From an uncultured Chloroflexia bacterium (GTDB taxonomy: Bacteria > Chloroflexota > Limnocylindria > Limnocylindrales > CSP1-4): 64,000 bases of DNA. The stretch covers positions 192,149 through 256,148 of the forward strand of contig CAWFXA010000003.1 of NCBI GenBank assembly GCA_963819655.1. The letters run 5' to 3'. Positions 3,014 through 33,481 of the stretch are shown here, piece after piece. Made by a program: the position numbers and the translations under genes. The first letter of the stretch is position 1, and each line of letters starts with the position of its first letter. Below the pieces are notes generated by a model that saw nothing but the letters and a program-made list of their open reading frames with translations, did not search any database and was not told where the DNA came from.

Positions 3014-4818
3014 ATGCCGGCTGGGGTCATGGTCGCGCCCGCGACGGAGCAGCTCGATGCTGTCGTCGGCGACGTCCGCTCGATCGCTCGAAACCTCGAT
3101 CGGGACGACCTTGCCGACCGGCTCGACGACATCCGGCGTCGGGCCGCGCGGACGGACACCGTGGTCTGTGTGGTCGGCGAATTCAAGAAGGGCAAGAGCG
3201 CCCTCATCAACGCGCTGCTCGGCAGTGCGGTGTGCCCCGTCGACGACGATCTCGCGACGGCTGCCGTCACGGTCGTCCGCTACGGCGAGACGCCGAGCGC
3301 CACTAGTCCACCGCCGCGAGGGTGGCGAGTCGGTCGTCGAGCAGATCGAACCGACCGCCGTGCCCGACTGGGCGCAGGAGCCGGTCGGTCGTGAGCGTCG
3401 ACCCCAGGTCGACCTCGTCGAGGTGCGCATCCCGAATCCGCTTCTCGAGGGCGGTCTCACGCTCGTCGACACACCGGGTGTCGGTGGCCTGAACGCCGGG
3501 CACGCCGCAGCGACGCTGGCCTTCCTCCCATCGGCCGATGCGCTCGTGTTCGTGACCGATGCGTCGGCTGAACTGTCGGGTCCGGAGCTGGAGTTCCTGG
3601 CCAGCGCCAGGGGCGCAGGCCCGCCGGTGCTCGTCGCCGTCACCAAGATCGACATCTACCCGGCGTGGCGTCGCATCATCGACATCGATACCGGCCATCT
3701 GCAGGCGATCGGTTTCGCCGAACGGCCCTTCGGGCTGAGCGCGGCGCTTCGTGCCCGGGCCGATGAGCGGGACGACGAGAGCGGCTACGGGGCATTCTCC
3801 GAGGCTCTTCGTGGCGACGTCGTCGAGCGCGCCCGCGTGGCGAGCCTGGGCGCGGCGGTCGGCGACCTGCGCTGGGTCCTCGGGCAGCTGCGGGAGCCCC
3901 TCGTCGCCGAGCGAACAGCACTCGAACACCCGGAGCAGGCTGCCGCGATCGCCGCGGACCTCGCGGCCGTGCGCGAGCGGCTTGCGGCGTTGCGCCGAGC
4001 GGACGCCGCGTGGTCGACCCGGCTCGACGATGAGTTCGGCACCGTGCGCACGCGCGTCGCGTTCGGTTTCCAGCGCGACATGCGGACGATCCTGCGTGAC
4101 GCGCAGGCCGAGATCGAGGGCACGGATCCGTCCGGGACGTGGCCGGAACTGAGCGCAAGGATCCAGGATCACATCGCGACTGCTGTCCGGGCGGCGTTCC
4201 GTGGCGCGACGACCGGCGCAGCCGATGTCCAGGCCACCATCGCTGACCTCCTGGCCGACGAGGAGCGCGGGTCCACCGACGCCGCGCCCTCGATCACGTT
4301 CGACGTCGGCGAGTTCTGGCGCGGTGACCCGGAGTTCGAGGGTCGGACGAAGTCGCGTCTGGGAGCCGGCTACGGCGTGGTGACCGGCGCCAAGGCCGGC
4401 GTCGAGCTGCTCGGTCTCGTCGGCACGCTGCTCGGTGCGGCGATCGTCGGGCCAGCCGTGCTCGGCGTGGCTGCGCTGTACGGCGGCAAGGAGGTCCTCG
4501 ACGAGCGGCGCCGTCGTCTCACCGACCGCCGCCAGCAGGCGCGGAGCTTCCTCGCCGACCTCGTCGAGGAGATCGCCTTCCAGGTCGAGGGACGGCTGAC
4601 CACGGTCCTCGACGAGATGCAGCGCCAGATGCGGGCACGCTTCACCGACCGGATCGGTGAGCTGCATCGGACCGTCGGGGCGAGTGCCACCGCGCTGGAG
4701 CGTGCAGCGAAACGCGAAGTCGCGACCGCAACGCGCGCGCCAGGAGGAAGTCGATGCGACCCTCGACGAGATCGACGCGCTCCACGAGCGGGCGCGCGGG
4801 TTGCGGCCGGTGGTCTGA
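3014..4818 (+). CDS. dynamin-like GTPase (second DLP, with hydrophobic membrane-paddle region); frame breaks near 3300-3308 and 4731-4742
   Basis: ATG at 3014 with an AGGAGGG RBS 11 nt upstream. G1 VVGEFKKGKSALINALLG, G3 LTLVDTPGVGG, G4 VAVTKIDIY. Hydrophobic hairpin GVELLGLVGTLLGAAIVGPAVLGVAALYGG. Three frames are needed: 3014-~3305, ~3305-~4738, then ~4738-4818 ending ...QEEVDATLDEIDALHERARGLRPVV*. Confidence 0.8.
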
Positions 4819-5828: not shown

Positions 5829-8006
5829 ATGACCTTCCCGGTCCAGGTCGGACCGTCGACGATCACGATCAACCGCGACGACCGCGTCCTCGTCTCCCAG
5901 CCCGACGCGAGGGTGCTCGGCGAGTCAGACGGCTTCTTCACGCGCGACACGCGTTTCATCTCGGGCTACGACATGTGGATCAACGGGCGACGGCCGATCC
6001 TCCTCGCGTCGGGGCCCATCCAGTTCTTCTCGTCGCGGTTCGAGTTCACGAACGAGGCGTCGGTCGATGCGGATGGCCCGATCGAACGCCAATCGCTCGC
6101 GCTGCGGATCGACCGGACCGTGGCGGATGCGGTGCACGAGGACATCGACCTCACGAACTATGCACGCCGACCCGTGCGACTGACGATCGAGGTCGCGATC
6201 CTGTCGGACTTCGCCGACATCTTCGACGTGAAGGCGGGGCGGATCCTCCGGCGTGGCGAGGTCAACTCGCGCTGGTTCCGCTCCCGCGGTGAGCTCCGCA
6301 CGACCTACGTGAACCGCGATTTCCGTCGGGACCTCGTCGTCGCGGTGGAGCGCGCCGGCTCGACCCCCCAGTTCGCCAACGGTCGCCTGGTCTTCGTCGC
6401 GAACATCCCTCCGAAAGGGACGTGGCACACCTGCCTGAAGTGGCTGCCGGTGACCGGCGCGCACCGCCGGCCCCTCACACTGGCGTGCAACGCTGTCGAT
6501 GCGCCGCTGCGCAAGATCGGTCGGACCACGCTGCCGAACGTCGCGATCCAGACGCCGAACCAGGTCGTCGATCGCGCCTGGGACCAGGCCGTGCGCGATC
6601 TCGAGTCGTTGCGTCTCGAGGACCCGACGTTCGAGCGGGGCGTGTTCATCCCGGCAGCCGGGGTGCCGTGGTTCGTGACGCTGTTCGGACGTGACTCGCT
6701 GATCGTGTCGATGCAGGGGATCTCCGGCTTCCCGGAGTTCGCGGCCGGCGCTTTGCGGCGCCTGTCGGGTTTGCAGGCCACGAGCGACGACCCCGAACGC
6801 GACATGGAGCCCGGCAAGATCCCCCATGAGATCCGGCACGGCGAGCTTGCCCAGCTCGGGATCCTGCCGTATCAGCCGTACTACGGGACGCACGACGCGA
6901 CCAGCCTCTTCGTGATCGTCCTGTCCTACCTCTATCACTGGACAGGCGACGCGAGCATCCTGCGCCGGTTCCTCCCGAATGCGGAAGCGGCGATGGCCTG
7001 GATCGACCGCTACGGGGATCGTGACAGCGACGGTTTCCAGGAGTACAAGACGCGGTCGTCGCACGGGTACTACAACCAGGGCTGGAAGGACGCGGGCGAC
7101 GCGATCGTCGAGGCGGATGGCACGTTGGCAGCGCTCCCGATCGCCACGTGCGAGCTGCAGGGCTACGTGTTCGACGCGAAGAACCGGATGGCGGACGTGT
7201 ACGAGGCGCTCGACCGGCCGAAGGACGCGCGCCGACTCCGCCGCCAGGCGCAGCGCCTCTACGAACGCGTGAACGAGACGCTCTGGTGGGAGGAGGAGGG
7301 CACGTACTACCTCGGGCTCAATGGCCGCAAGGAACCGATCCGGAGCGTCGCCTCGAACGCCGGTCATCTCCTCCAGTCGGGGATCGTCCCACCGGAGCGC
7401 GCCGGTCGCGTCGTGAAGCGCCTGATGGCCGACGACATGTGGTCTGGCTGGGGCGTCCGGACGCTGTCGTCCGCACACCCCGCGTACAACCCGTTCTCCT
7501 ATCAGACCGGCTCTGTGTGGCCACACGACAACGCGTCGATCGCCGGCGGGTTCCGCCGGTACGGCTACGCGGCCGAGGCGGCCCAGGTCGCCAAAGGCAT
7601 CTTCGATGCCGCGGAACGGCTGGTCGGTCTGCGGCTCCCCGAACTGTTCTCGGGCCTCCCGCGAGTGCCGGCCAGCTTTCCTGTGCCGTACCTCGGCGCG
7701 AACGTCCCGCAGGCATGGGCGGCCGGCTCGGTCTTCCGGTTCGTCGCGATCCTGTGCGGGCTGCACGCGACCGTCGATGCCGACGGGTCCAAGCTCTATG
7801 TCAACCCGGCACTCCCGGACTGGCTGCCCGAGATCACGATCCAGAACCTGCGGTTGGGGACCGGCTCGATGGCGATCCGTTTCGCCGACGGCGACGCCGA
7901 GGTGCTCTCGAACACGTCCGGCTATCGCGTCGTGCACGGACCCGCGCCCGGGCCATTCGGCAGTCGCGGCGCGGTCGTGGCAGAGTCACCGCATGCAGGC
8001 GCCTGA
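5829..8006 (+). CDS. amylo-alpha-1,6-glucosidase family protein (bacterial glycogen-debranching-enzyme-like, GDE_N_bact + GDE_C)
   Basis: 726-aa ORF starting MTFPVQVGPSTITINRDDRVLV after a GGAGA RBS. Conserved GDE_C region GVPWFVTLFGRDSLIVS ... YYNQGWKDAGDAIV ... GSVWPHDNASIA. Its stop overlaps the next gene start. Confidence 0.75.
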   Translation: MTFPVQVGPSTITINRDDRVLVSQPDARVLGESDGFFTRDTRFISGYDMWINGRRPILLASGPIQFFSSRFEFTNEASVDADGPIERQSLALRIDRTVADAVHEDIDLTNYARRPVRLTIEVAILSDFADIFDVKAGRILRRGEVNSRWFRSRGELRTTYVNRDFRRDLVVAVERAGSTPQFANGRLVFVANIPPKGTWHTCLKWLPVTGAHRRPLTLACNAVDAPLRKIGRTTLPNVAIQTPNQVVDRAWDQAVRDLESLRLEDPTFERGVFIPAAGVPWFVTLFGRDSLIVSMQGISGFPEFAAGALRRLSGLQATSDDPERDMEPGKIPHEIRHGELAQLGILPYQPYYGTHDATSLFVIVLSYLYHWTGDASILRRFLPNAEAAMAWIDRYGDRDSDGFQEYKTRSSHGYYNQGWKDAGDAIVEADGTLAALPIATCELQGYVFDAKNRMADVYEALDRPKDARRLRRQAQRLYERVNETLWWEEEGTYYLGLNGRKEPIRSVASNAGHLLQSGIVPPERAGRVVKRLMADDMWSGWGVRTLSSAHPAYNPFSYQTGSVWPHDNASIAGGFRRYGYAAEAAQVAKGIFDAAERLVGLRLPELFSGLPRVPASFPVPYLGANVPQAWAAGSVFRFVAILCGLHATVDADGSKLYVNPALPDWLPEITIQNLRLGTGSMAIRFADGDAEVLSNTSGYRVVHGPAPGPFGSRGAVVAESPHAGA

Positions 8007-27725: not shown

Positions 27726-28349
27726 TCACGGTCCTCCAGGTCGACGTGGCCGCCGTGGGCGGATGGCGCGTCGGACGATCGAGCGCGGTTTCGCTGCGCC
27801 GGATGCCGCACGTCGCTCGACGACCTTGAAGGCTGCTCGCTCGAACATGGCGAGCGTGCCGCGGAATGCGTCCCCCGCGGGGATCCGCTCGCCGGCGGGG
27901 ATATCGACCGGATAGGCCTCGAGCGTCGTGGCCCCGTGATCACGGGCGTAGTCGACGCCGGCATCCAGCAGCGCCCGCGCGACCCCGCGCCCGCGTGACT
28001 GACGACCGACGACGAAGCAGACGATCGACCAGACGGGCTTGTCGTCGAGCGGAGCGAGGACCTTGGAGTGCGCGAGCCGCTCGTAGTCCTCGCGCGGACC
28101 GATGCTGATCCAGCCGACCGCCTCGGTGCCGTCGTAGGCCACCAGACCGGGGGCGCGACCCTCATCGGCCGTCTCGGCGACGGCAGCCTCCATGACCGAC
28201 CGATGTCTGGCCTTGCCACCGCTGGAGAAGTCGAACCCACGGATCCGGAAGTAGGCGCACCAGCACCACTTCGGGTCGCCACCCTGCTCGAAGAGTGACG
28301 CGAGGTCCGGGAGGCGATCGGGAGTGAGGGGCCGGATGTCGATAGCCAT
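27726..28349 (-). CDS. GNAT family N-acetyltransferase
   Basis: Acetyl-CoA binding motif VVGRQSRGRGVARALLDAGVDYARDHGA. Confidence 0.7.
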   Translation of the reverse strand: MAIDIRPLTPDRLPDLASLFEQGGDPKWCWCAYFRIRGFDFSSGGKARHRSVMEAAVAETADEGRAPGLVAYDGTEAVGWISIGPREDYERLAHSKVLAPLDDKPVWSIVCFVVGRQSRGRGVARALLDAGVDYARDHGATTLEAYPVDIPAGERIPAGDAFRGTLAMFERAAFKVVERRAASGAAKPRSIVRRAIRPRRPRRPGGP

Positions 28350-28520
28350 CTTGGCGATCGTACGTGCTGAGGTGACCGCGGTCCGTCATGAACCCGTGCC
28401 GGCCGTGGTTTGGTGCCGCATTGGGTCACCTCATGACCATTCCGGAGAACGAGCGCTTTGATCGACGGCCGTCGGGGCCTCGTCGGGTCACCCGACGACA
28501 CATCCGACGCTCGAGCGCTG

Positions 28521-28614
28521 GCTCAGGCCTCGATACGGTCACGGGGTGACACATCAGGCCGTCGAGCGGCCCCCATCCTCTGCTCAGGTTCCGATACGGT
28601 CACCGGGTGACACA
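28521..28614. promoter_or_regulatory. tandem ~33-bp direct repeat, each copy carrying a 13-bp palindrome GTCAC-N3-GTGAC (candidate paired operator)
   Basis: Copy 1 at 28521-28553 (palindrome GTCACGGGGTGAC, 28538-28550). Copy 2 at 28582-28614 (GTCACCGGGTGAC, 28599-28611). Centre-to-centre spacing is 61 bp. Copy 2 overlaps the first in-frame start of the downstream ATPase ORF. Confidence 0.45.
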
Positions 28615-29617
28615 GGGCCCGCCCGGTGCAGCCGCCAGGTCCCGCCACGCCCGTTTGACGCTCCTCGGACCCCGGCCGTACGCTCCGCCCGTGGCCGAGA
28701 CCTCGCCGGGGCGGGGCCGGTGGACCATCCGCCACGTCCCACCGACGCCGCGCTCGATCGTCGAGCTGATCCGTGCCGGCACGCTCGATGCGGAGCTGGC
28801 GGCGACCCTGTGGGTCCTGATCGAGAGCCGGGTCCCGCTCGTCGTCGCGGCACGTGTCCAAGGTGCCGGCAAGACCACGCTTCTCGACGCTCTGATGGTG
28901 TTCCTCCCGCCAGGTGTGCGGACGATGGAGCTGGCCGGCGCGATGGAGACGTTCGACTGGCTCCCGCAGGCTCCGGAGCTGGGCTGGCGTCGCCCCCACG
29001 CACCGGACGCGATCGCCGCACGGGTCACCGGCCGCCAGCCCCCTGCGATCACACCCGACAACACGGTCCTCCTGATCCCTGAGCTGTCCGACCACCTGCC
29101 GTCCTACACGTGGGGCGCGGAGGCACGCATCGCGATCCGGGCGGTGGCGATCGGTTACGGGCTGGCCGCGACGATCCACGCCGACTCGCTCGACGAGGTC
29201 TTCGAGGAGCTTCGCCACCCGCCGGTGAGCCTCGGCGACGACGAGCTCTCGCGGCTCGGCGTCGTGCTCGTTGTGCGACCGGTCGGGGACGGGCTGCGCC
29301 GGGTCGCTGCCGCCCACTACGTCCGCCCGGTCGCGCGCGATGAGCACGGACACGTCCAGCGGCTCGGGCCGGCCGTACTGGCCACCTGGGACCCGAATGG
29401 CGATCGGTTCGAGCACTTCGGCTGGGGCATCATCCCCGAGCTCGCGCGGCGGGTCGAGCGGCGCCCGGGCGACTTCGAAGTCGATGTCGATCGTCGGCGC
29501 GACTACCTCGCCGGTCTTGCCGAGGCCGGCATCGTCGATGTCGATGCCGTCCGCGCTGCCATCGAAGGCTTCCGAGCCACGACCGTCGATCCTTCCAGCG
29601 TCCTCGCCACGAACTGA
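28607..29617 (+). CDS. divergent CpaF/VirB11-like (type II/IV secretion ATPase family) P-loop protein, possibly catalytically degenerate; start uncertain
   Basis: GTLDAELAATLWVLIESRVPLVVAARVQGAGKTTLLDALMVFLPPGVRTMEL matches the secretion-ATPase core. ATIHADSLDEVFEEL matches the conserved His-box. The Walker B / catalytic Glu region is atypical (LLIPELSD). No pilus or secretion genes are nearby. Alternative GTG start at 28691. Confidence 0.6.
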   Translation: MTQGPPGAAARSRHARLTLLGPRPYAPPVAETSPGRGRWTIRHVPPTPRSIVELIRAGTLDAELAATLWVLIESRVPLVVAARVQGAGKTTLLDALMVFLPPGVRTMELAGAMETFDWLPQAPELGWRRPHAPDAIAARVTGRQPPAITPDNTVLLIPELSDHLPSYTWGAEARIAIRAVAIGYGLAATIHADSLDEVFEELRHPPVSLGDDELSRLGVVLVVRPVGDGLRRVAAAHYVRPVARDEHGHVQRLGPAVLATWDPNGDRFEHFGWGIIPELARRVERRPGDFEVDVDRRRDYLAGLAEAGIVDVDAVRAAIEGFRATTVDPSSVLATN

Positions 29618-29627
29618 GGTCCCAGCG

Positions 29628-31070
29628 ATGCCGACCCCCGCGCGCCCCGCCACGATCGCCGAGCTGCGGGCCGCCGGGTGGCGCTCGCGGACCGTCAAGG
29701 AGGAGCTTCGTGCGAACCTCCTCGACCGCCTGGGCTCCGGTGACGACGTGCTACCCGGGATCGTCGGCTACGAAGACTCGGTCGTCCCCGCGATCGAGAA
29801 CGCGATCCTCGCCGGGCACGACCTGGTCTTCCTCGGCGAACGCGGCCAGGCGAAGACGCGTATGGCACGGCTGCTCGTCGGGCTGCTCGATGAATGGCTG
29901 CCGGTCGTCCGCGGTGGCGACCTGAACGACGACCCGTACGCCCCCGTCTCACCCGCGGCCCGCGCGATCATCGAGCGCGACGGCGACGACGCGCCGATCG
30001 ACTGGCTGCCACGTGACCGGCGCTATGCCGAGAAGCTGGCGACACCGGACATCACCATCGCCGACCTCATCGGCGAGGTCGATCCGATCAAGGTCGCAGA
30101 GGGTCGCTACTTGTCCGACGAGCTGACGCTTCATTACGGGCTGATCCCGCGCGCGAACAGGGGCATCGTCGCGATCAATGAGCTGCCCGACCTGGCGGAG
30201 CGGATCCAGGTCGGACTGCTGAACGTACTCGAGGAACGCGACGTCCAGATCCGTGGCTTCATCGTCCGGTTGCCGTTGGACCTGTATGTCGTCGCGAGCG
30301 CCAACCCCGAGGACTACACGTCGCGCGGCCGCATCATCACGCCGCTCAAGGATCGCCTCGGGTCGCAGATCCGGACGCACTACCCGCGCTCTCTCGACGA
30401 CGAGCTGTTGATCGTGGCGCAGGAGAAGCACCGCTTCCCGGTGGCCTCGGATCCCGATGTCGCAGCCCCGACCGTGGTCGTGCCTCCGTTCATGGAGGAG
30501 GTCGTGGCCGAGATCACGCACCTCGCCCGGCGCTCCCCGGAGATCAGCCAGCGCTCGGGTGTGTCGGTCCGGGTTTCCGTCGCGAACATGGAGGTCCTCG
30601 AGGCAGCGGCATTGAAGCGCGCGGTGCGTCTCGGCGAGGCCGTCGGTGCGCCGCGCGTCTCGGATCTCGGAGCGGTCGTCGCCTCGACCGTCGGCAAGGT
30701 CGAGCTCGAATCGGTCGGCGACGAGGCGCCCGAGGAGCGCGTCGTCGAGCGCCTCATCACGAAGGCCCTGTACGCGACGTTCAACCGGCGCGTGACCCTC
30801 GACGACCTCGACCCGATCGTCGAGGCATTCGAGGACGGCTTCATCGTCGAGACGGGCGAGCGGACGCCGTCACGCGAGTACGTGGCGTGGTTGCGTGAGG
30901 TTCCCGGGATGGATGACGCCGTGGCCGGCCTCGGCACGTTCGATGTCACCGATGGGGCCGAGGAGCCCGCGGTCGTCGCATCGGCCGTCGAGTTCCTGCT
31001 CGAAGGGCTCCACCTCGCCCGCCGGCTGAACAAGGAGCGGGTCGCGGGCGGGACGGTCTACCACCGATGA
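29628..31070 (+). CDS. ChlI/BchI-like (Mg-chelatase family) AAA+ ATPase
   Basis: GIVGYEDSVVPAIENAILAGHDLVFLGERGQAKTRMARLLVGLLDEWLP parallels the BchI motif IVGQEEMK ... GDRGTGKST ... LLP. Walker B GIVAINELPD. GAGG RBS before ATG at 29628. Confidence 0.75.
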   Translation: MPTPARPATIAELRAAGWRSRTVKEELRANLLDRLGSGDDVLPGIVGYEDSVVPAIENAILAGHDLVFLGERGQAKTRMARLLVGLLDEWLPVVRGGDLNDDPYAPVSPAARAIIERDGDDAPIDWLPRDRRYAEKLATPDITIADLIGEVDPIKVAEGRYLSDELTLHYGLIPRANRGIVAINELPDLAERIQVGLLNVLEERDVQIRGFIVRLPLDLYVVASANPEDYTSRGRIITPLKDRLGSQIRTHYPRSLDDELLIVAQEKHRFPVASDPDVAAPTVVVPPFMEEVVAEITHLARRSPEISQRSGVSVRVSVANMEVLEAAALKRAVRLGEAVGAPRVSDLGAVVASTVGKVELESVGDEAPEERVVERLITKALYATFNRRVTLDDLDPIVEAFEDGFIVETGERTPSREYVAWLREVPGMDDAVAGLGTFDVTDGAEEPAVVASAVEFLLEGLHLARRLNKERVAGGTVYHR

Positions 31071-31119
31071 TCGGTTCAGGGATCCGGGCGCTGCCGGTCC
31101 CACTCCCAGGCGCGCGCGC

Positions 31120-31360
31120 TGACCGACGGTCAACGTTGATGTCCGGCACCTTGGAGCGCGCTGACCGTGGGTCAACGTACCGGTCGCAAACGGCTGCCGA
31201 CGGGCGCCTGGCGACGTCTACGTTGCCCGTCGGTAACCAAGGGTCCGCGATGACGGGCCCCCAGAGCGTCACTGCGCCCCTTCGTGCCAAGATCGTTGAC
31301 CCTGGGTCAGCGCGGCGACGGTCCATGGCGTTGTTGCCCAAGATCGTTGACCGTGGGTCA
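31120..31360. repeat. four copies of a 13-bp palindrome TGACC-N3-GGTCA in two direct-repeat pairs within the intergenic spacer
   Basis: TGACCGACGGTCA at 31120-31132 and TGACCGTGGGTCA at 31162-31174, both in gcgcgcTGACC..GGTCAacgt context. TGACCCTGGGTCA at 31297-31309 and TGACCGTGGGTCA at 31348-31360, both in ccaagatcgtTGACC..GGTCAgcgcgg context. Confidence 0.45.
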
Positions 31361-31380
31361 GCGCGGGACGGGCCGTCGTC

Positions 31381-33481
31381 GTGACCGCCTACTCGCCCGA
31401 CCCGCGTGACCTCGCCGGGCGCGTCCCGGTGCCACCTGAAGCGGACGGGACGCTGGCCGGTCGCGCGCGATACTCGCGCTGGGACGGCACGCAGCGTCTG
31501 CCCGACCTCGAGGCTGACGAGATCCTCAAGGCGCTGTCCGACGACGTCATGGCGGAGGGAGATCTGGCCGAGGCGCTGCGCCGGCTGATGGACCGCGGTT
31601 GGCGGAGCGGCGATCCGACCCGCCCGGACATGCCCGGCCTCCAGGATCTGATGGAACGTCTGGCGCGCCGTCGCGAGGAGCTGCGCGAGCGGTACGACCT
31701 CGGCGACGTCCTAGGCGACATTCGGCACGAGCTCGAGGAGATCGTGGCCGACGAGCGATCGGGCGTGGAGCGGCGCCTGGAGCGGGCCGCGGAAGACGCG
31801 CCCGATGCGGACACCGCGCGCGTGGCGCAGGACCTCGCCGCTCGGCGCCTGGACCGTCTCGATGCACTCCCGCCCGACCTCGGCGAGCGGATCCGCGACC
31901 TGCGTGAGTACGACTTCCTCGAGCAGGACGCACGCCAGCGCTTCGACGAGCTCGTCGAGCGGCTGAGCAAGCAAGTCCTCGACCAGTTCGCGCAGGGGAT
32001 GAGCGACGCCATCCGCTCGATGACGCCGGAGGACCTCAGCGCGAATCGCGAGATGGTCCGCGACCTCAACGACCTCATCCGCCAGAGGATCGGTGGGCAG
32101 GACCCGGACGTCCGCGACTTCCTCGCGAAGCACGGGCGGTTCTTTCCTGGCGCCCAGACCTTCGACGACATCATCGACCAGCTGGCGCAGCGGATGGCCG
32201 CGATGCAGTCGCTCATGCGCTCGCTCAGCCCGGAGCAGCGCGCCGAGCTCGAATCGATGATGGAAGCGCTCTTACGCGACGACCGCCTCGTGATCGACCT
32301 CGCGCAGCTCGCCTCGAACCTCGATCTGCTGCTCCCCGGCGGGCTCGGCGATCGCGTGCGTTTCAGCGGCGATGAGTCGCTGTCGCTCGATGGCGCCCTC
32401 TCCCAGATCGCCCGGATGCAGGCCATGGAGCGCCTCGAGGATTCACTCATGGACGTCGAAGCACCCGGCGATCTCGCCGCGATCGACCGCGACGACGTCC
32501 GCGAGCTCATGGGCGACGACGCCGCCCGCGAGCTCGACGCCCTCGATGACCTCGCCCGGCGCCTGGAGGAAGCCGGCTACCTGACGCGCGACGGCGAGCG
32601 GCTCGAGCTGACCCCGCGCGGGACGCGGAAGATCGGCCAGCAGGTCCTCGACGACCTGTTCGCCCGCCTCGCAGCGCGACGCATTCGGCGGTCACCGCAT
32701 CGATCGGCAGGGGCGGGGCGGCGAGCGTGAGGAGACCACGAAGCCGTACGAGTTCGGGGATCCATTCCACCTGGACCTGCGCGGCACGCTGTCCAACGCC
32801 ATGGTCCGCGAGGAGAACGCGCCGGCGGCGCGAGCCGCCCGCGGCGAGCGCGGTGTCAGGCTGATACCGGACGATTTCGAGGTCTATCGCACCGAGCAGC
32901 TCACCAGCACCGCGACCGTCCTGCTCGTCGACATGAGCCGCTCGATGCTTCTGCGCGGCTGTTTCCTGGCGGCCAAGAAGGTCGCGATCGCCCTCGACAC
33001 GCTGATCCGGACGCAGTACCCGCGCGACCACCTGTCGGTCATCGGCTTCGCGTATTACGCGCGGGAGATCCGGCCGGGCGCCCTGGCCGAGCTGACCTGG
33101 CACGGCTATGAGTACGGCACCAACCTCCAGCACGGGCTGATGCTCGCCCGTCGGATCCTGGCGCGGCAGGCCGCTTCGAACCGCGAGATCGTGGTGATCA
33201 CGGACGGTGAGCCAACCGCCCACTTCGAAGGCGGCCAGGTCGAGTTCAGCTACCCACCGACCCGGCGCACCATCAGCGAGACCCTCCGCGAGGTGCAGCG
33301 CTGCACGAAGGAGGGCATCACGATCAACACGTTCATGCTCGAGCGGTCGCGCGCCCTGGCCGAGTTCGTCGCCCACATGACGAAGCTCAACCGCGGTCGG
33401 GCGTTCTACGCGACGCCGGAACGCCTCGGTGAGTACGTGCTGGTCGACTTCGTCGGACGGCGCTCGAAGCGGGTGTCGTAG
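31381..33481 (+). CDS. VWA-domain protein with long N-terminal acidic/coiled-coil region (ChlD/CobT-like partner of the ChlI-like ATPase); +1 frame break near 32665-32680
   Basis: The 449-aa N-terminal ORF (GTG at 31381) has a helical, D/E/R-rich composition. The second frame carries the MIDAS motifs VLLVDMSRSM ... VVITDGEPTA. The frames join through ...DLFARLA | RDAFGGHRIDRQGRGGEREETTKPYEFGDPFHLDLRGT. Confidence 0.75.

Follow-up and report, generated by a model that had tools for sequence, protein, structure and literature searches.

A 64,000-nt stretch of DNA from an uncultured Chloroflexia soil bacterium of the order Limnocylindrales (the window; contig CAWFXA010000003.1, positions 192,149 to 256,148) contains an apparent operon in which a gene for an Rv0958-type AAA+ ATPase is followed by a gene for an Rv0959-type VWA protein, and the 310-nt spacer between them carries four copies of the palindrome TGACC-N3-GGTCA. 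We found that this spacer is an insertion restricted to a single gene junction, that it is polymorphic in presence and copy number, and that both the palindrome arms and an open reading frame (ORF) bridging the two genes, which we call the relay ORF, are conserved. The explanation that we favour, and put forward tentatively as one that may well be right, is that the palindromes are the selectively retained cores of this single-junction repeat insertion, and that with the relay ORF they form a co-transcribed hairpin array tuning VWA output.

The four palindromes were found at 31120-31132, 31162-31174, 31297-31309 and 31348-31360, exactly as described in a first-pass annotation of this DNA, and nowhere else in the window, against an expected count of 0.07 in 64 kb according to dinucleotide-preserving shuffles. 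A repeat finder extended each of them to an asymmetric 21-mer, CGTTGACCNNNGGTCAGCGCG, which can be written as CGTTGACC-N3-GGTCAGCGCG and in which 18 of the 18 specified bases are identical across the four copies. The paired, conserved contexts 42 and 51 bp apart that had been reported before were also recovered, as 23 nt at 91% identity around sites 1 and 2 (42 nt apart) and, around sites 3 and 4 (51 nt apart), 29 nt at 97% identity. Missing from that description was the orientation of the pairs: the 21-mer reads on the minus strand at sites 1 and 2 but on the plus strand at sites 3 and 4, which makes the two pairs inverted copies of each other. A fifth, degenerate site in the middle of the spacer had likewise been overlooked, as it is visible only through comparison with relatives, in which the homologous site reads GGTGAC-N5-GTCACC.

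This comparison reveals a common layout in the lineage of the window, consisting of two forward units, CG(C/T)TGACC-N3-GGTCAACG, then the GGTGAC-N5-GTCACC site (degenerate in the window), and finally one or two inverted units, ATCGTTGACC-N3-GGTCAGC, with an extra 51-nt unit in the window. The inverted 21-nt repeats, which are 90-95% complementary, thereby flank a short intergenic segment. In the relatives, no more than a short GTTT(T)C tail follows the forward units, and the window has it in degenerate form. Five genomes share the 42-nt distance between sites 1 and 2, even though their linker sequences have diverged.

Related loci were drawn from three sources, namely one genome-collection match (L074), the loci of homologous proteins (eleven look-ups) and a metagenome scan returning 80 loci (58-95% VWA identity), and the AAA stop and VWA start were mapped in every one of them. 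In approximately 20 of these loci the AAA stop and the VWA start overlap by 4 nt (GTGA or ATGA), and in most others 4-79 nt separate the two genes, which identifies the 310-nt spacer as a lineage-specific insertion. The overlapping junction is the ancestral and commonest state. The spacer had been correctly placed inside an apparent operon by the first-pass annotation; to this we add that the same two genes overlap in most relatives.

Long spacers are also present in L074 (253 nt), in L158, L159 and L164 (259 nt each) and in L166 (268 nt). At the same junction L161, L163 and L165 have only 25 nt, even though their VWA protein is ~97% identical to that of the window, and L161 shares ~98% nucleotide identity with the spacer carrier L158. 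The long and short alleles differ by 234 nt, or exactly 78 codons. Moreover, the 51-nt tandem duplication that gives rise to sites 3 and 4 occurs in the window and in L166 but not in L074, L158, L159 or L164. The co-occurrence of 25-nt and long alleles in near-identical strains, together with the differences in the 51-nt duplication, establishes a presence/absence and copy-number polymorphism. Judged by these alignments, the spacer is a recent and variable insertion and no standing feature of the operon. All insertions that we found occupy exactly the same AAA-VWA junction, and hairpin-forming repeats of 157-470 nt open this junction in several Limnocylindrales lineages. The inserts have terminal inverted repeats (site 1 and its tail against the flank and the last site), and the spacers are flanked on both sides by the junction repeat (A/G)TGACC, which is largely explained by the coding constraints of the stop and start codons.

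Palindromes of the same type recur at this junction in more distant lineages. Three loci with VWA proteins 74-76% identical to that of the window (L096, L097 and L115; spacers of 258-457 nt) carry CGTTGACC-N3-GGTCAACG, the same palindrome as in the window (type A), in the same layout of forward units, a GGTGAC-N5-GTCACC site and one to four inverted units after ATCG. In a neighbour-joining tree, each of these three is nearer to a lineage with an intact GTGA overlap (identity 0.91-0.93) than to another carrier (0.87-0.88), such that presence and absence of the insert are interleaved on the tree and three sister pairs each consist of one carrier and one intact GTGA overlap. Other long spacers contain other palindromes, namely GATGCC...GGCATC (L135, L139), GATCG...CGATC (L148, L150), TGATGCA...TGCATCA (L092) and an ATGCA-type palindrome (L132). 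Types A, B and D have the outer stem and tail in common, CA(A/T)CGTTT(T)CGG, and differ in their inner stems while keeping complementarity. On the strength of these short motifs, the inner-stem differences look like hairpin covariation, and the occurrence of differing yet complementary inner stems at one and the same junction therefore favours pairing over a fixed protein site.

To what extent individual parts of the spacer are conserved was assessed from pairwise identities in an alignment of the window, L074, L158 and L159. The 8-nt palindrome arms are 92-98% identical, compared with 55-78% for the 3-nt loops, 51-73% for the remaining spacer (89% in the closest pair) and 80-94% for VWA third codon positions. 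The arms have therefore been kept, whereas the sequence surrounding them turns over faster than synonymous sites. Type A arms and their architecture also recur in L096, L097 and L115 despite the low VWA identity of these loci. As RNA, each site is predicted to form a hairpin with 8 base-pair positions in the stem and 3 nt in the loop (-8.4 to -10.8 kcal/mol), with a G.U pair in the stems of sites 3 and 4, and the forward and inverted groups could also pair with each other over ~21-26 nt. In L074, L158 and L159, a stable predicted hairpin (-16.5 kcal/mol in L074) abuts the VWA ATG, with one compensatory change and G.U changes among the three. Neither in the window nor in L074 was a Shine-Dalgarno-like sequence seen ahead of the VWA start, and these two observations suggest that initiation there requires a ribosome that comes from upstream.

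Such a ribosome could be supplied by the relay ORF, whose ATG lies within the ATGA of the AAA stop and whose TGA lies within the GTGA of the VWA start. The first-pass annotation had dismissed this ORF as spurious. In one respect this was right, as the ORF is no conventional protein gene: its GC content is flat over the three codon positions (0.63/0.66/0.755, compared with 0.88-0.92 at third positions in the neighbouring genes), and no homologue was found among 5.8 billion proteins at E values up to 10, where not even the ORF itself was recovered, making this search uninformative on dispersal. The ORF is not mere noise either, since its frame and its stop/start overlaps are kept in relatives. 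In 10 of 14 long spacers, the frame opened by the stop-overlapping NTG is the sole stop-free forward frame and ends in the NTGA of the VWA start (P about 9e-5, counted over independent lineages). Furthermore, 20 of 32 distinct gap lengths equal 1 modulo 3 (P = 7e-4). The wider clade of the window has four spacer lengths (310, 253, 259 and 268 nt), and the relay frame is retained in all of them, despite indels that alter the reading frames of the palindromes and despite a TGA in another frame of every palindrome. Against the 105 codons of the window, the relay ORF has 86 codons in L074, 88 in L158 and L159, 91 in L166, 154 in L097, 133 in L139, 88 in L148 and L150, and 54 in L092.

Gaps of only 4-52 nt (L077, positions 3972-4004; L087, L106, L091 and others) usually contain mini-ORFs of 3-19 codons running from the NTGA stop to the NTGA start. 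From these sequence patterns, relay coupling seems to be the rule at the AAA-VWA junction whatever the length of the spacer. As for the earlier interpretation overall, the sites are indeed non-random, locus-specific and possibly regulatory, but the spacer that holds them is a young, variable insertion and its ORF a conserved relay frame.

We searched for copies elsewhere at several scales. Within the 64-kb window, nothing significant was found outside 31114-31365 with the palindrome core, the 21-mer at up to 3 mismatches, TTGACC-N3-GGTCAA at up to 2 mismatches or a unit profile hidden Markov model (HMM) built from 21 aligned units. In ~0.5 Mb of related Limnocylindrales loci, the core and the unit HMM matched this spacer alone, and over a total of 1.1 Mb of sequence the motif was confined to the AAA-VWA junction. 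An exact 21-mer scan of one genome each for 185,579 species returned 74 single matches, of which a large share lie in cold-shock protein coding sequence and the rest are scattered over unrelated phyla; the array itself appeared only in L074, the representative genome of the sister lineage, at the orthologous locus. The Gaiellaceae-rich portion of these matches was rejected as sites, since the 21-mer there, CGTTGACCGAGGGTCAGCGCG, represents the codons SLTEGQRV of cold-shock protein genes. This 21-mer recurs in Gaiellaceae and other Actinomycetota (L001-L073, for example L003, L004, L012, L015, L022, L023, L028 and L031), and the case illustrates that exact-motif matches in high-GC genomes can be coding coincidence. 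A blastn comparison of the spacer with plasmid and phage collections gave no match, and Rfam searches of the window spacer and of L097 gave none at the gathering score and only chance-level ones at relaxed thresholds (E >= 0.4). Readings of the sites as tRNA, CRISPR-like or integron attC-like elements were discarded, as orientation, spacing and consensus do not fit. Dispersal in the manner of repetitive extragenic palindromic (REP) sequences, which the first-pass annotation had singled out as the finding that would speak against a role specific to this locus, was thus not observed in the window, the related loci or the species genomes.

Together, these observations can be arranged into a mechanism. 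At the ancestral junction, the VWA gene would presumably be translated via termination-reinitiation. RNA polymerase would run through the insert, making it a segment of the operon mRNA, and the relay ORF, without any protein function of its own, would carry ribosomes across it and deliver them to the VWA start, such that translational coupling survives, much as proposed for mycobacterial interspersed repetitive units (MIRUs). The palindromes would most likely form stem-loops which, together with the extra termination-reinitiation step, may lower and tune the amount of VWA protein made per AAA+ subunit. The number of units could then act as a quickly evolving setting that differs between strains in the manner of a variable-number tandem repeat (VNTR). 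Pattern scans are compatible with such read-through: neither a sigma-70-like nor a sigma-54-like promoter was detected in the spacer, and no intrinsic terminator (a G+C-rich hairpin with a U-tract) occurs in 28300-31600. An internal promoter for the VWA gene, as proposed in the first-pass annotation, accordingly finds no positive support. We also considered that the AAA+ protein might be an enhancer-binding protein for which the palindromes serve as upstream sites, and set this aside because the sigma-54 promoter pattern is absent from the spacer.

Several points weigh against the hairpin-array explanation. Co-transcription, actual translation of the relay ORF and hairpin tuning of the VWA level are all deduced from sequence. 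The relay frame is not kept in four of the long spacers (L096, L115, L132 and L135), the plus-strand stems of sites 1 and 2 contain a C.A mismatch, and the homology among palindrome types A to E rests on short common flanks. The census of the genome collection covered one exact 21-mer variant, so sparse further copies may exist elsewhere in the genome. Folding energies of the sense and antisense strands show no systematic difference, and selection on a sense-strand RNA rather than a DNA palindrome is therefore not indicated. In addition, type A arms lack compensatory changes and are invariant across lineages whose proteins are only ~75% identical, as a sequence-specific binding protein would produce. 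Because both strands fold equally well and type A arms are invariant rather than covarying, roles at the RNA and DNA levels are not separable here.

For this reason, an operator array, in line with the idea of the first-pass annotation, keeps substantial weight as a possible explanation. A homodimeric regulator would bind the sites on double-stranded DNA and act as a roadblock between the AAA and VWA genes, or at an unrecognised internal promoter, maybe in cooperation with the upstream array described below. The sites are palindromic with conserved half-sites, as such operators are: near-perfect over 19 bp, they combine invariant arms with a free centre of 3 bp, the arm sequence is unchanged between lineages with ~75% identical VWA proteins, and folding shows no sense-strand bias. 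The constant 42-nt spacing in five genomes despite linker divergence, along with other spacings of 51-54 and 72-73 nt that lie near whole helical turns, points in the same direction, as does the finding that the sole other paired palindromes in the 64 kb are located in this operon's own promoter region and share the GGTCA/TGACC pentamers with the internal sites. The half-sites TTGACC/GGTCAA are, moreover, those of the predicted CRP/FNR-type HcpR site, ATTTGACC-N2-GGTCAAAT (PMC545781), although the centre here is N3 rather than the N2 of CRP/FNR-type sites. On the other hand, none of the loci has a regulator gene in the ~6 kb to either side, no further sites occur in the 64 kb even at 2 mismatches, and promoter-like sequence was not found in the spacer. 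The half-sites of the upstream array are arranged oppositely, so that one dimer geometry could not serve both arrays, and the two arrays are gained and lost independently. Finally, the different palindromes of other lineages would demand a different protein in each, and some close relatives do without the array altogether.

The palindromes might instead be a functionless by-product of a junction where template switching and slippage readily create direct and inverted duplications that build up and perfect hairpin arrays; variants that keep the relay frame would persist only through being harmless, and slippage between duplicated copies of the junction would easily remove them again. We regard this as rather unlikely. 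It would account for the interleaved presence and absence on the tree, including the three carrier/intact-GTGA sister pairs, for the variable copy number, for the (A/G)TGACC repeats flanking the spacer and for a non-palindromic spacer sequence that evolves faster than third codon positions. The upstream array, similarly, appears to have grown from a quasi-palindromic seed present in array-free relatives. In addition, the left arm and loop of several sites appear to copy the junction itself, CCGGTGACCGCC (AAA stop, VWA start, Thr, Ala): sites resembling the junction and its inverted complement read CGTTGACCGCC-GGTCAACG in L097 and L158 and CGTGACCGCC-GGTCACG in L160. Shuffle tests found matches to the own junction enriched in most type A carriers (not in L115), whereas for the other palindrome types enrichment was weak and inconsistent, with weak significance in L132, L135 and L092, and the matrix of own against foreign junctions was noisy, with some foreign junctions matching a spacer equally well. 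Against this, the arms exceed third codon positions in conservation and have been kept across deep splits, which is not what neutral concerted evolution would lead one to expect; nor does a neutral origin explain why this operon alone in 64 kb has such arrays.

The junction-like sites and the interleaved presence and absence do suggest birth in place by direct and inverted duplication, followed by precise loss through slippage between flanking repeats, an origin that we treat as a lead and not as a result. Combining this origin with selection yields a more specific proposal, which we consider speculative and on balance improbable: that the palindromes are direct-plus-inverted copies of the stop/start overlap of the operon, made in place by template switching and kept by selection, and that with the relay ORF they form a VNTR-like rheostat or contingency locus for the VWA:AAA+ ratio that has arisen or been remodelled repeatedly, with different stems, across Limnocylindrales lineages. 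Much further from the evidence is a dispersed mobile element, of the REP, MITE (miniature inverted-repeat transposable element) or MIRU type, that landed here by chance. Imperfect palindromes of ~20 nt in alternating orientation, long terminal inverted repeats, short direct repeats around the insert and a patchy phylogenetic distribution would all be expected of such an element. Yet neither the pattern nor the profile HMM found a second copy in the 64 kb or in the ~0.5 Mb of related loci, the sister lineage's representative genome matched at the orthologous locus only, the junction is identical in every insertion, and no transposase gene, including any like the REP-associated tyrosine transposase (RAYT), was found within ~6 kb on either side at the examined loci, making this very unlikely. 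Least credible of all is an invertible switch, in which the inverted 21-mers would be recombinase sites and the 116-209-bp segment between them would flip to switch VWA expression. The 21-nt inverted repeats, 90-95% complementary around a short intergenic segment, have the requisite form, and recombinase sites of the hix type are palindromic as well. However, the central segment has the same orientation in all seven carriers that were aligned or inspected, the neighbourhood contains no recombinase gene, a 3-nt centre is short for a crossover region, and the relay frame is conserved in the observed orientation.

Several known systems resemble the array in part. REP sequences, REPINs and the bacterial interspersed mosaic elements (BIMEs), all of proteobacteria, are imperfect palindromes of ~20-35 nt that are clustered, alternate in orientation and often lie between operon genes, and their hairpins affect mRNA stability and the relative expression of neighbouring genes. 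REPs, however, have copy numbers in the hundreds and are associated with a RAYT transposase, whereas the searches here yielded neither a second locus nor such a gene. The Rickettsia palindromic elements (RPEs) are dispersed palindromic repeats in translated sequence that keep the frame and form part of functional proteins. The array resembles them in that palindromic repeats are tolerated because the reading frame is kept, and differs in having a separate relay ORF between two genes. The closest parallel is with MIRUs, which are inserted at start codons and contain an internal ORF coupled at -4 (reviewed in PMC12548453). Like the spacer described here, MIRUs lie between co-oriented genes of one operon, vary in copy number between strains and have ORF ends that overlap the neighbouring stop and start codons. 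They are, in contrast, direct tandem repeats found at tens of loci in mycobacteria and thought to be mobile, whereas the units here are palindromic, both forward and inverted, and occupy one junction only in Chloroflexota. Considering the single locus and the palindromic, partly inverted units, we therefore regard the array as a MIRU analogue and not as a member of that family. The likeness to the CRP/FNR-type HcpR operator extends to identical half-sites, conserved arms and a free centre (PMC545781). All sites here, however, have TTGAC-N5-GTCAA with a centre of 3 rather than 2 bp, compared with TGA-N6-TCA or TTGAC-N4-GTCAA in CRP/FNR-type sites, and they lie within a predicted translated intercistronic region rather than a promoter, with no regulon sites found in the 64 kb.

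If the favoured explanation is correct, this junction would provide a second independent example, and one outside mycobacteria, of a repeat insertion in an operon that survives through its own relay frame. It would go beyond MIRUs in being palindromic and limited to a single junction, at which it recurs in many lineages with different stems. It would thus offer a natural system for studying how structure between cistrons is tolerated and exploited by translational coupling, and how hairpin arrays arise and disappear. For the widespread and uncharacterised Rv0958/Rv0959-type ATPase-VWA pair, it would mean that the ratio of the subunits may be under recurrent selection. Should the palindromes bind a protein instead, they would represent an unusual operator array within a translated intercistronic frame.

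Features of the AAA-VWA operon and its spacer, in window coordinates
Feature	Position	Strand	Description
Upstream palindromic array	28532-28553, 28593-28614		two units GATACGGTCAC-N3-GTGACACA, between a divergent acetyltransferase gene and the operon promoter
Promoter-like element	28655-28684	+	TTGACG-N18-TACGCT, ending ~6 nt before the gene 1 GTG
Gene 1	28691-29617	+	~308 aa, P-loop GAGKTTLL, first gene of the operon; gene calls in relatives 308-314 aa
Rv0958-type AAA+ ATPase (ChlI/MoxR-like)	29628-31070	+	TGA stop within ATGA 31067-31070; orthologues 481 aa
Relay (bridging) ORF	31067-31384	+	105 codons; ATG in the ATGA of the AAA stop, TGA in the GTGA of the VWA start (31381-31384)
Inserted spacer	31071-31380	+	310 nt between the AAA stop (31070) and the VWA GTG (31381)
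Site 1	31115-31135	-	21-mer CGTTGACCgtcGGTCAGCGCG on the minus strand, plus-strand reading CGCGCTGACCgacGGTCAACG; predicted RNA hairpin -8.4 kcal/mol
Site 2	31157-31177	-	same 21-mer as site 1, 42 nt away; predicted RNA hairpin -8.6 kcal/mol
Degenerate middle (fifth) site	31222-31238		GTTGCCCGTCGGTAACC; homologous to GGTGAC-N5-GTCACC of relatives
Site 3	31294-31314	+	21-mer CGTTGACCctgGGTCAGCGCG, preceded by CCAAGAT; predicted RNA hairpin -10.6 kcal/mol
Site 4	31345-31365	+	51-nt tandem copy of the site 3 unit, ending 16 nt before the VWA start
Rv0959-type VWA gene	31381-33481	+	GTG start at 31381; split in the window, 449 + 226 aa

The gene assignments rest on protein family matches. The AAA+ gene has weak Pfam matches to AAA_5, Mg_chelatase and Sigma54_activat, and homologues of the VWA protein, which are 699 aa long and come from sources named Candidatus Limnocylindrales (Chloroflexota), match Mb0984_helical, Rv0959_3rd and VWA_2; together these identify the Rv0958/Rv0959-type pair. 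Gene 1 has no Pfam match; the context of its P-loop recalls secretion ATPases of the VirB11/CpaF type, and the gene accompanies the AAA-VWA pair in many lineages. Association of the mycobacterial Rv0958 orthologue with DNA has been tested in published work, which did not find it (PMC7092591).

The VWA gene of the window is split by one extra C near 32669 (window 32659-32681, GCCTCGCAG, compared with GCCTGCAG in L074). In L166, a different 1-nt insertion ~27 nt further on (~6290-6300) leads to the same out-of-frame stop and likewise to a 449-aa product, and all relatives except one encode the full-length VWA protein (~699 aa). Assembly indels are the likeliest cause of the splits, because both sequences are long-read metagenome-assembled genomes, in which other genes are also fragmented (L160, L165), although the split may also reflect a real pseudogene or a frameshift-prone site.

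The array upstream of the operon, with its GTCAC-N3-GTGAC sites at 28538 and 28599, is the one further case of recurrent paired palindromes in the window. On the basis of these sites, the first-pass annotation had proposed that two different DNA-binding proteins could act on the locus. The motif is, however, not clearly different, as the upstream GGTCAC-N3-GTGACC holds the same GGTCA/TGACC pentamers as the internal sites, arranged oppositely, and it is also variable in copy number, with between 0-1 and 3 units among close relatives (L074, L162-L165). The idea that this array and the internal spacer are gained and lost together fitted seven genomes and was abandoned on account of L164 (spacer present, one unit) and L165 (no spacer, three units). 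Degenerate copies of the upstream unit lie near 28424 and 28487, the quasi-palindromic seed GATTCGGTCACCCGGTGCGG is present in relatives without the upstream array, and a flank of the upstream array, GATTCGGT, is similar to the sequence flanking the middle site of the L097 spacer.

A TTGACG-N17/18-TACGCT element, strongly conserved, heads the operon in at least 20 related loci, and its closeness to the gene 1 GTG in the window suggests a transcript that would be leaderless or nearly so. In distant lineages, the TTGACG/TACGCT element stands directly before the AAA gene and not before gene 1, and in L121, L154 and L157 it occurs in both places.

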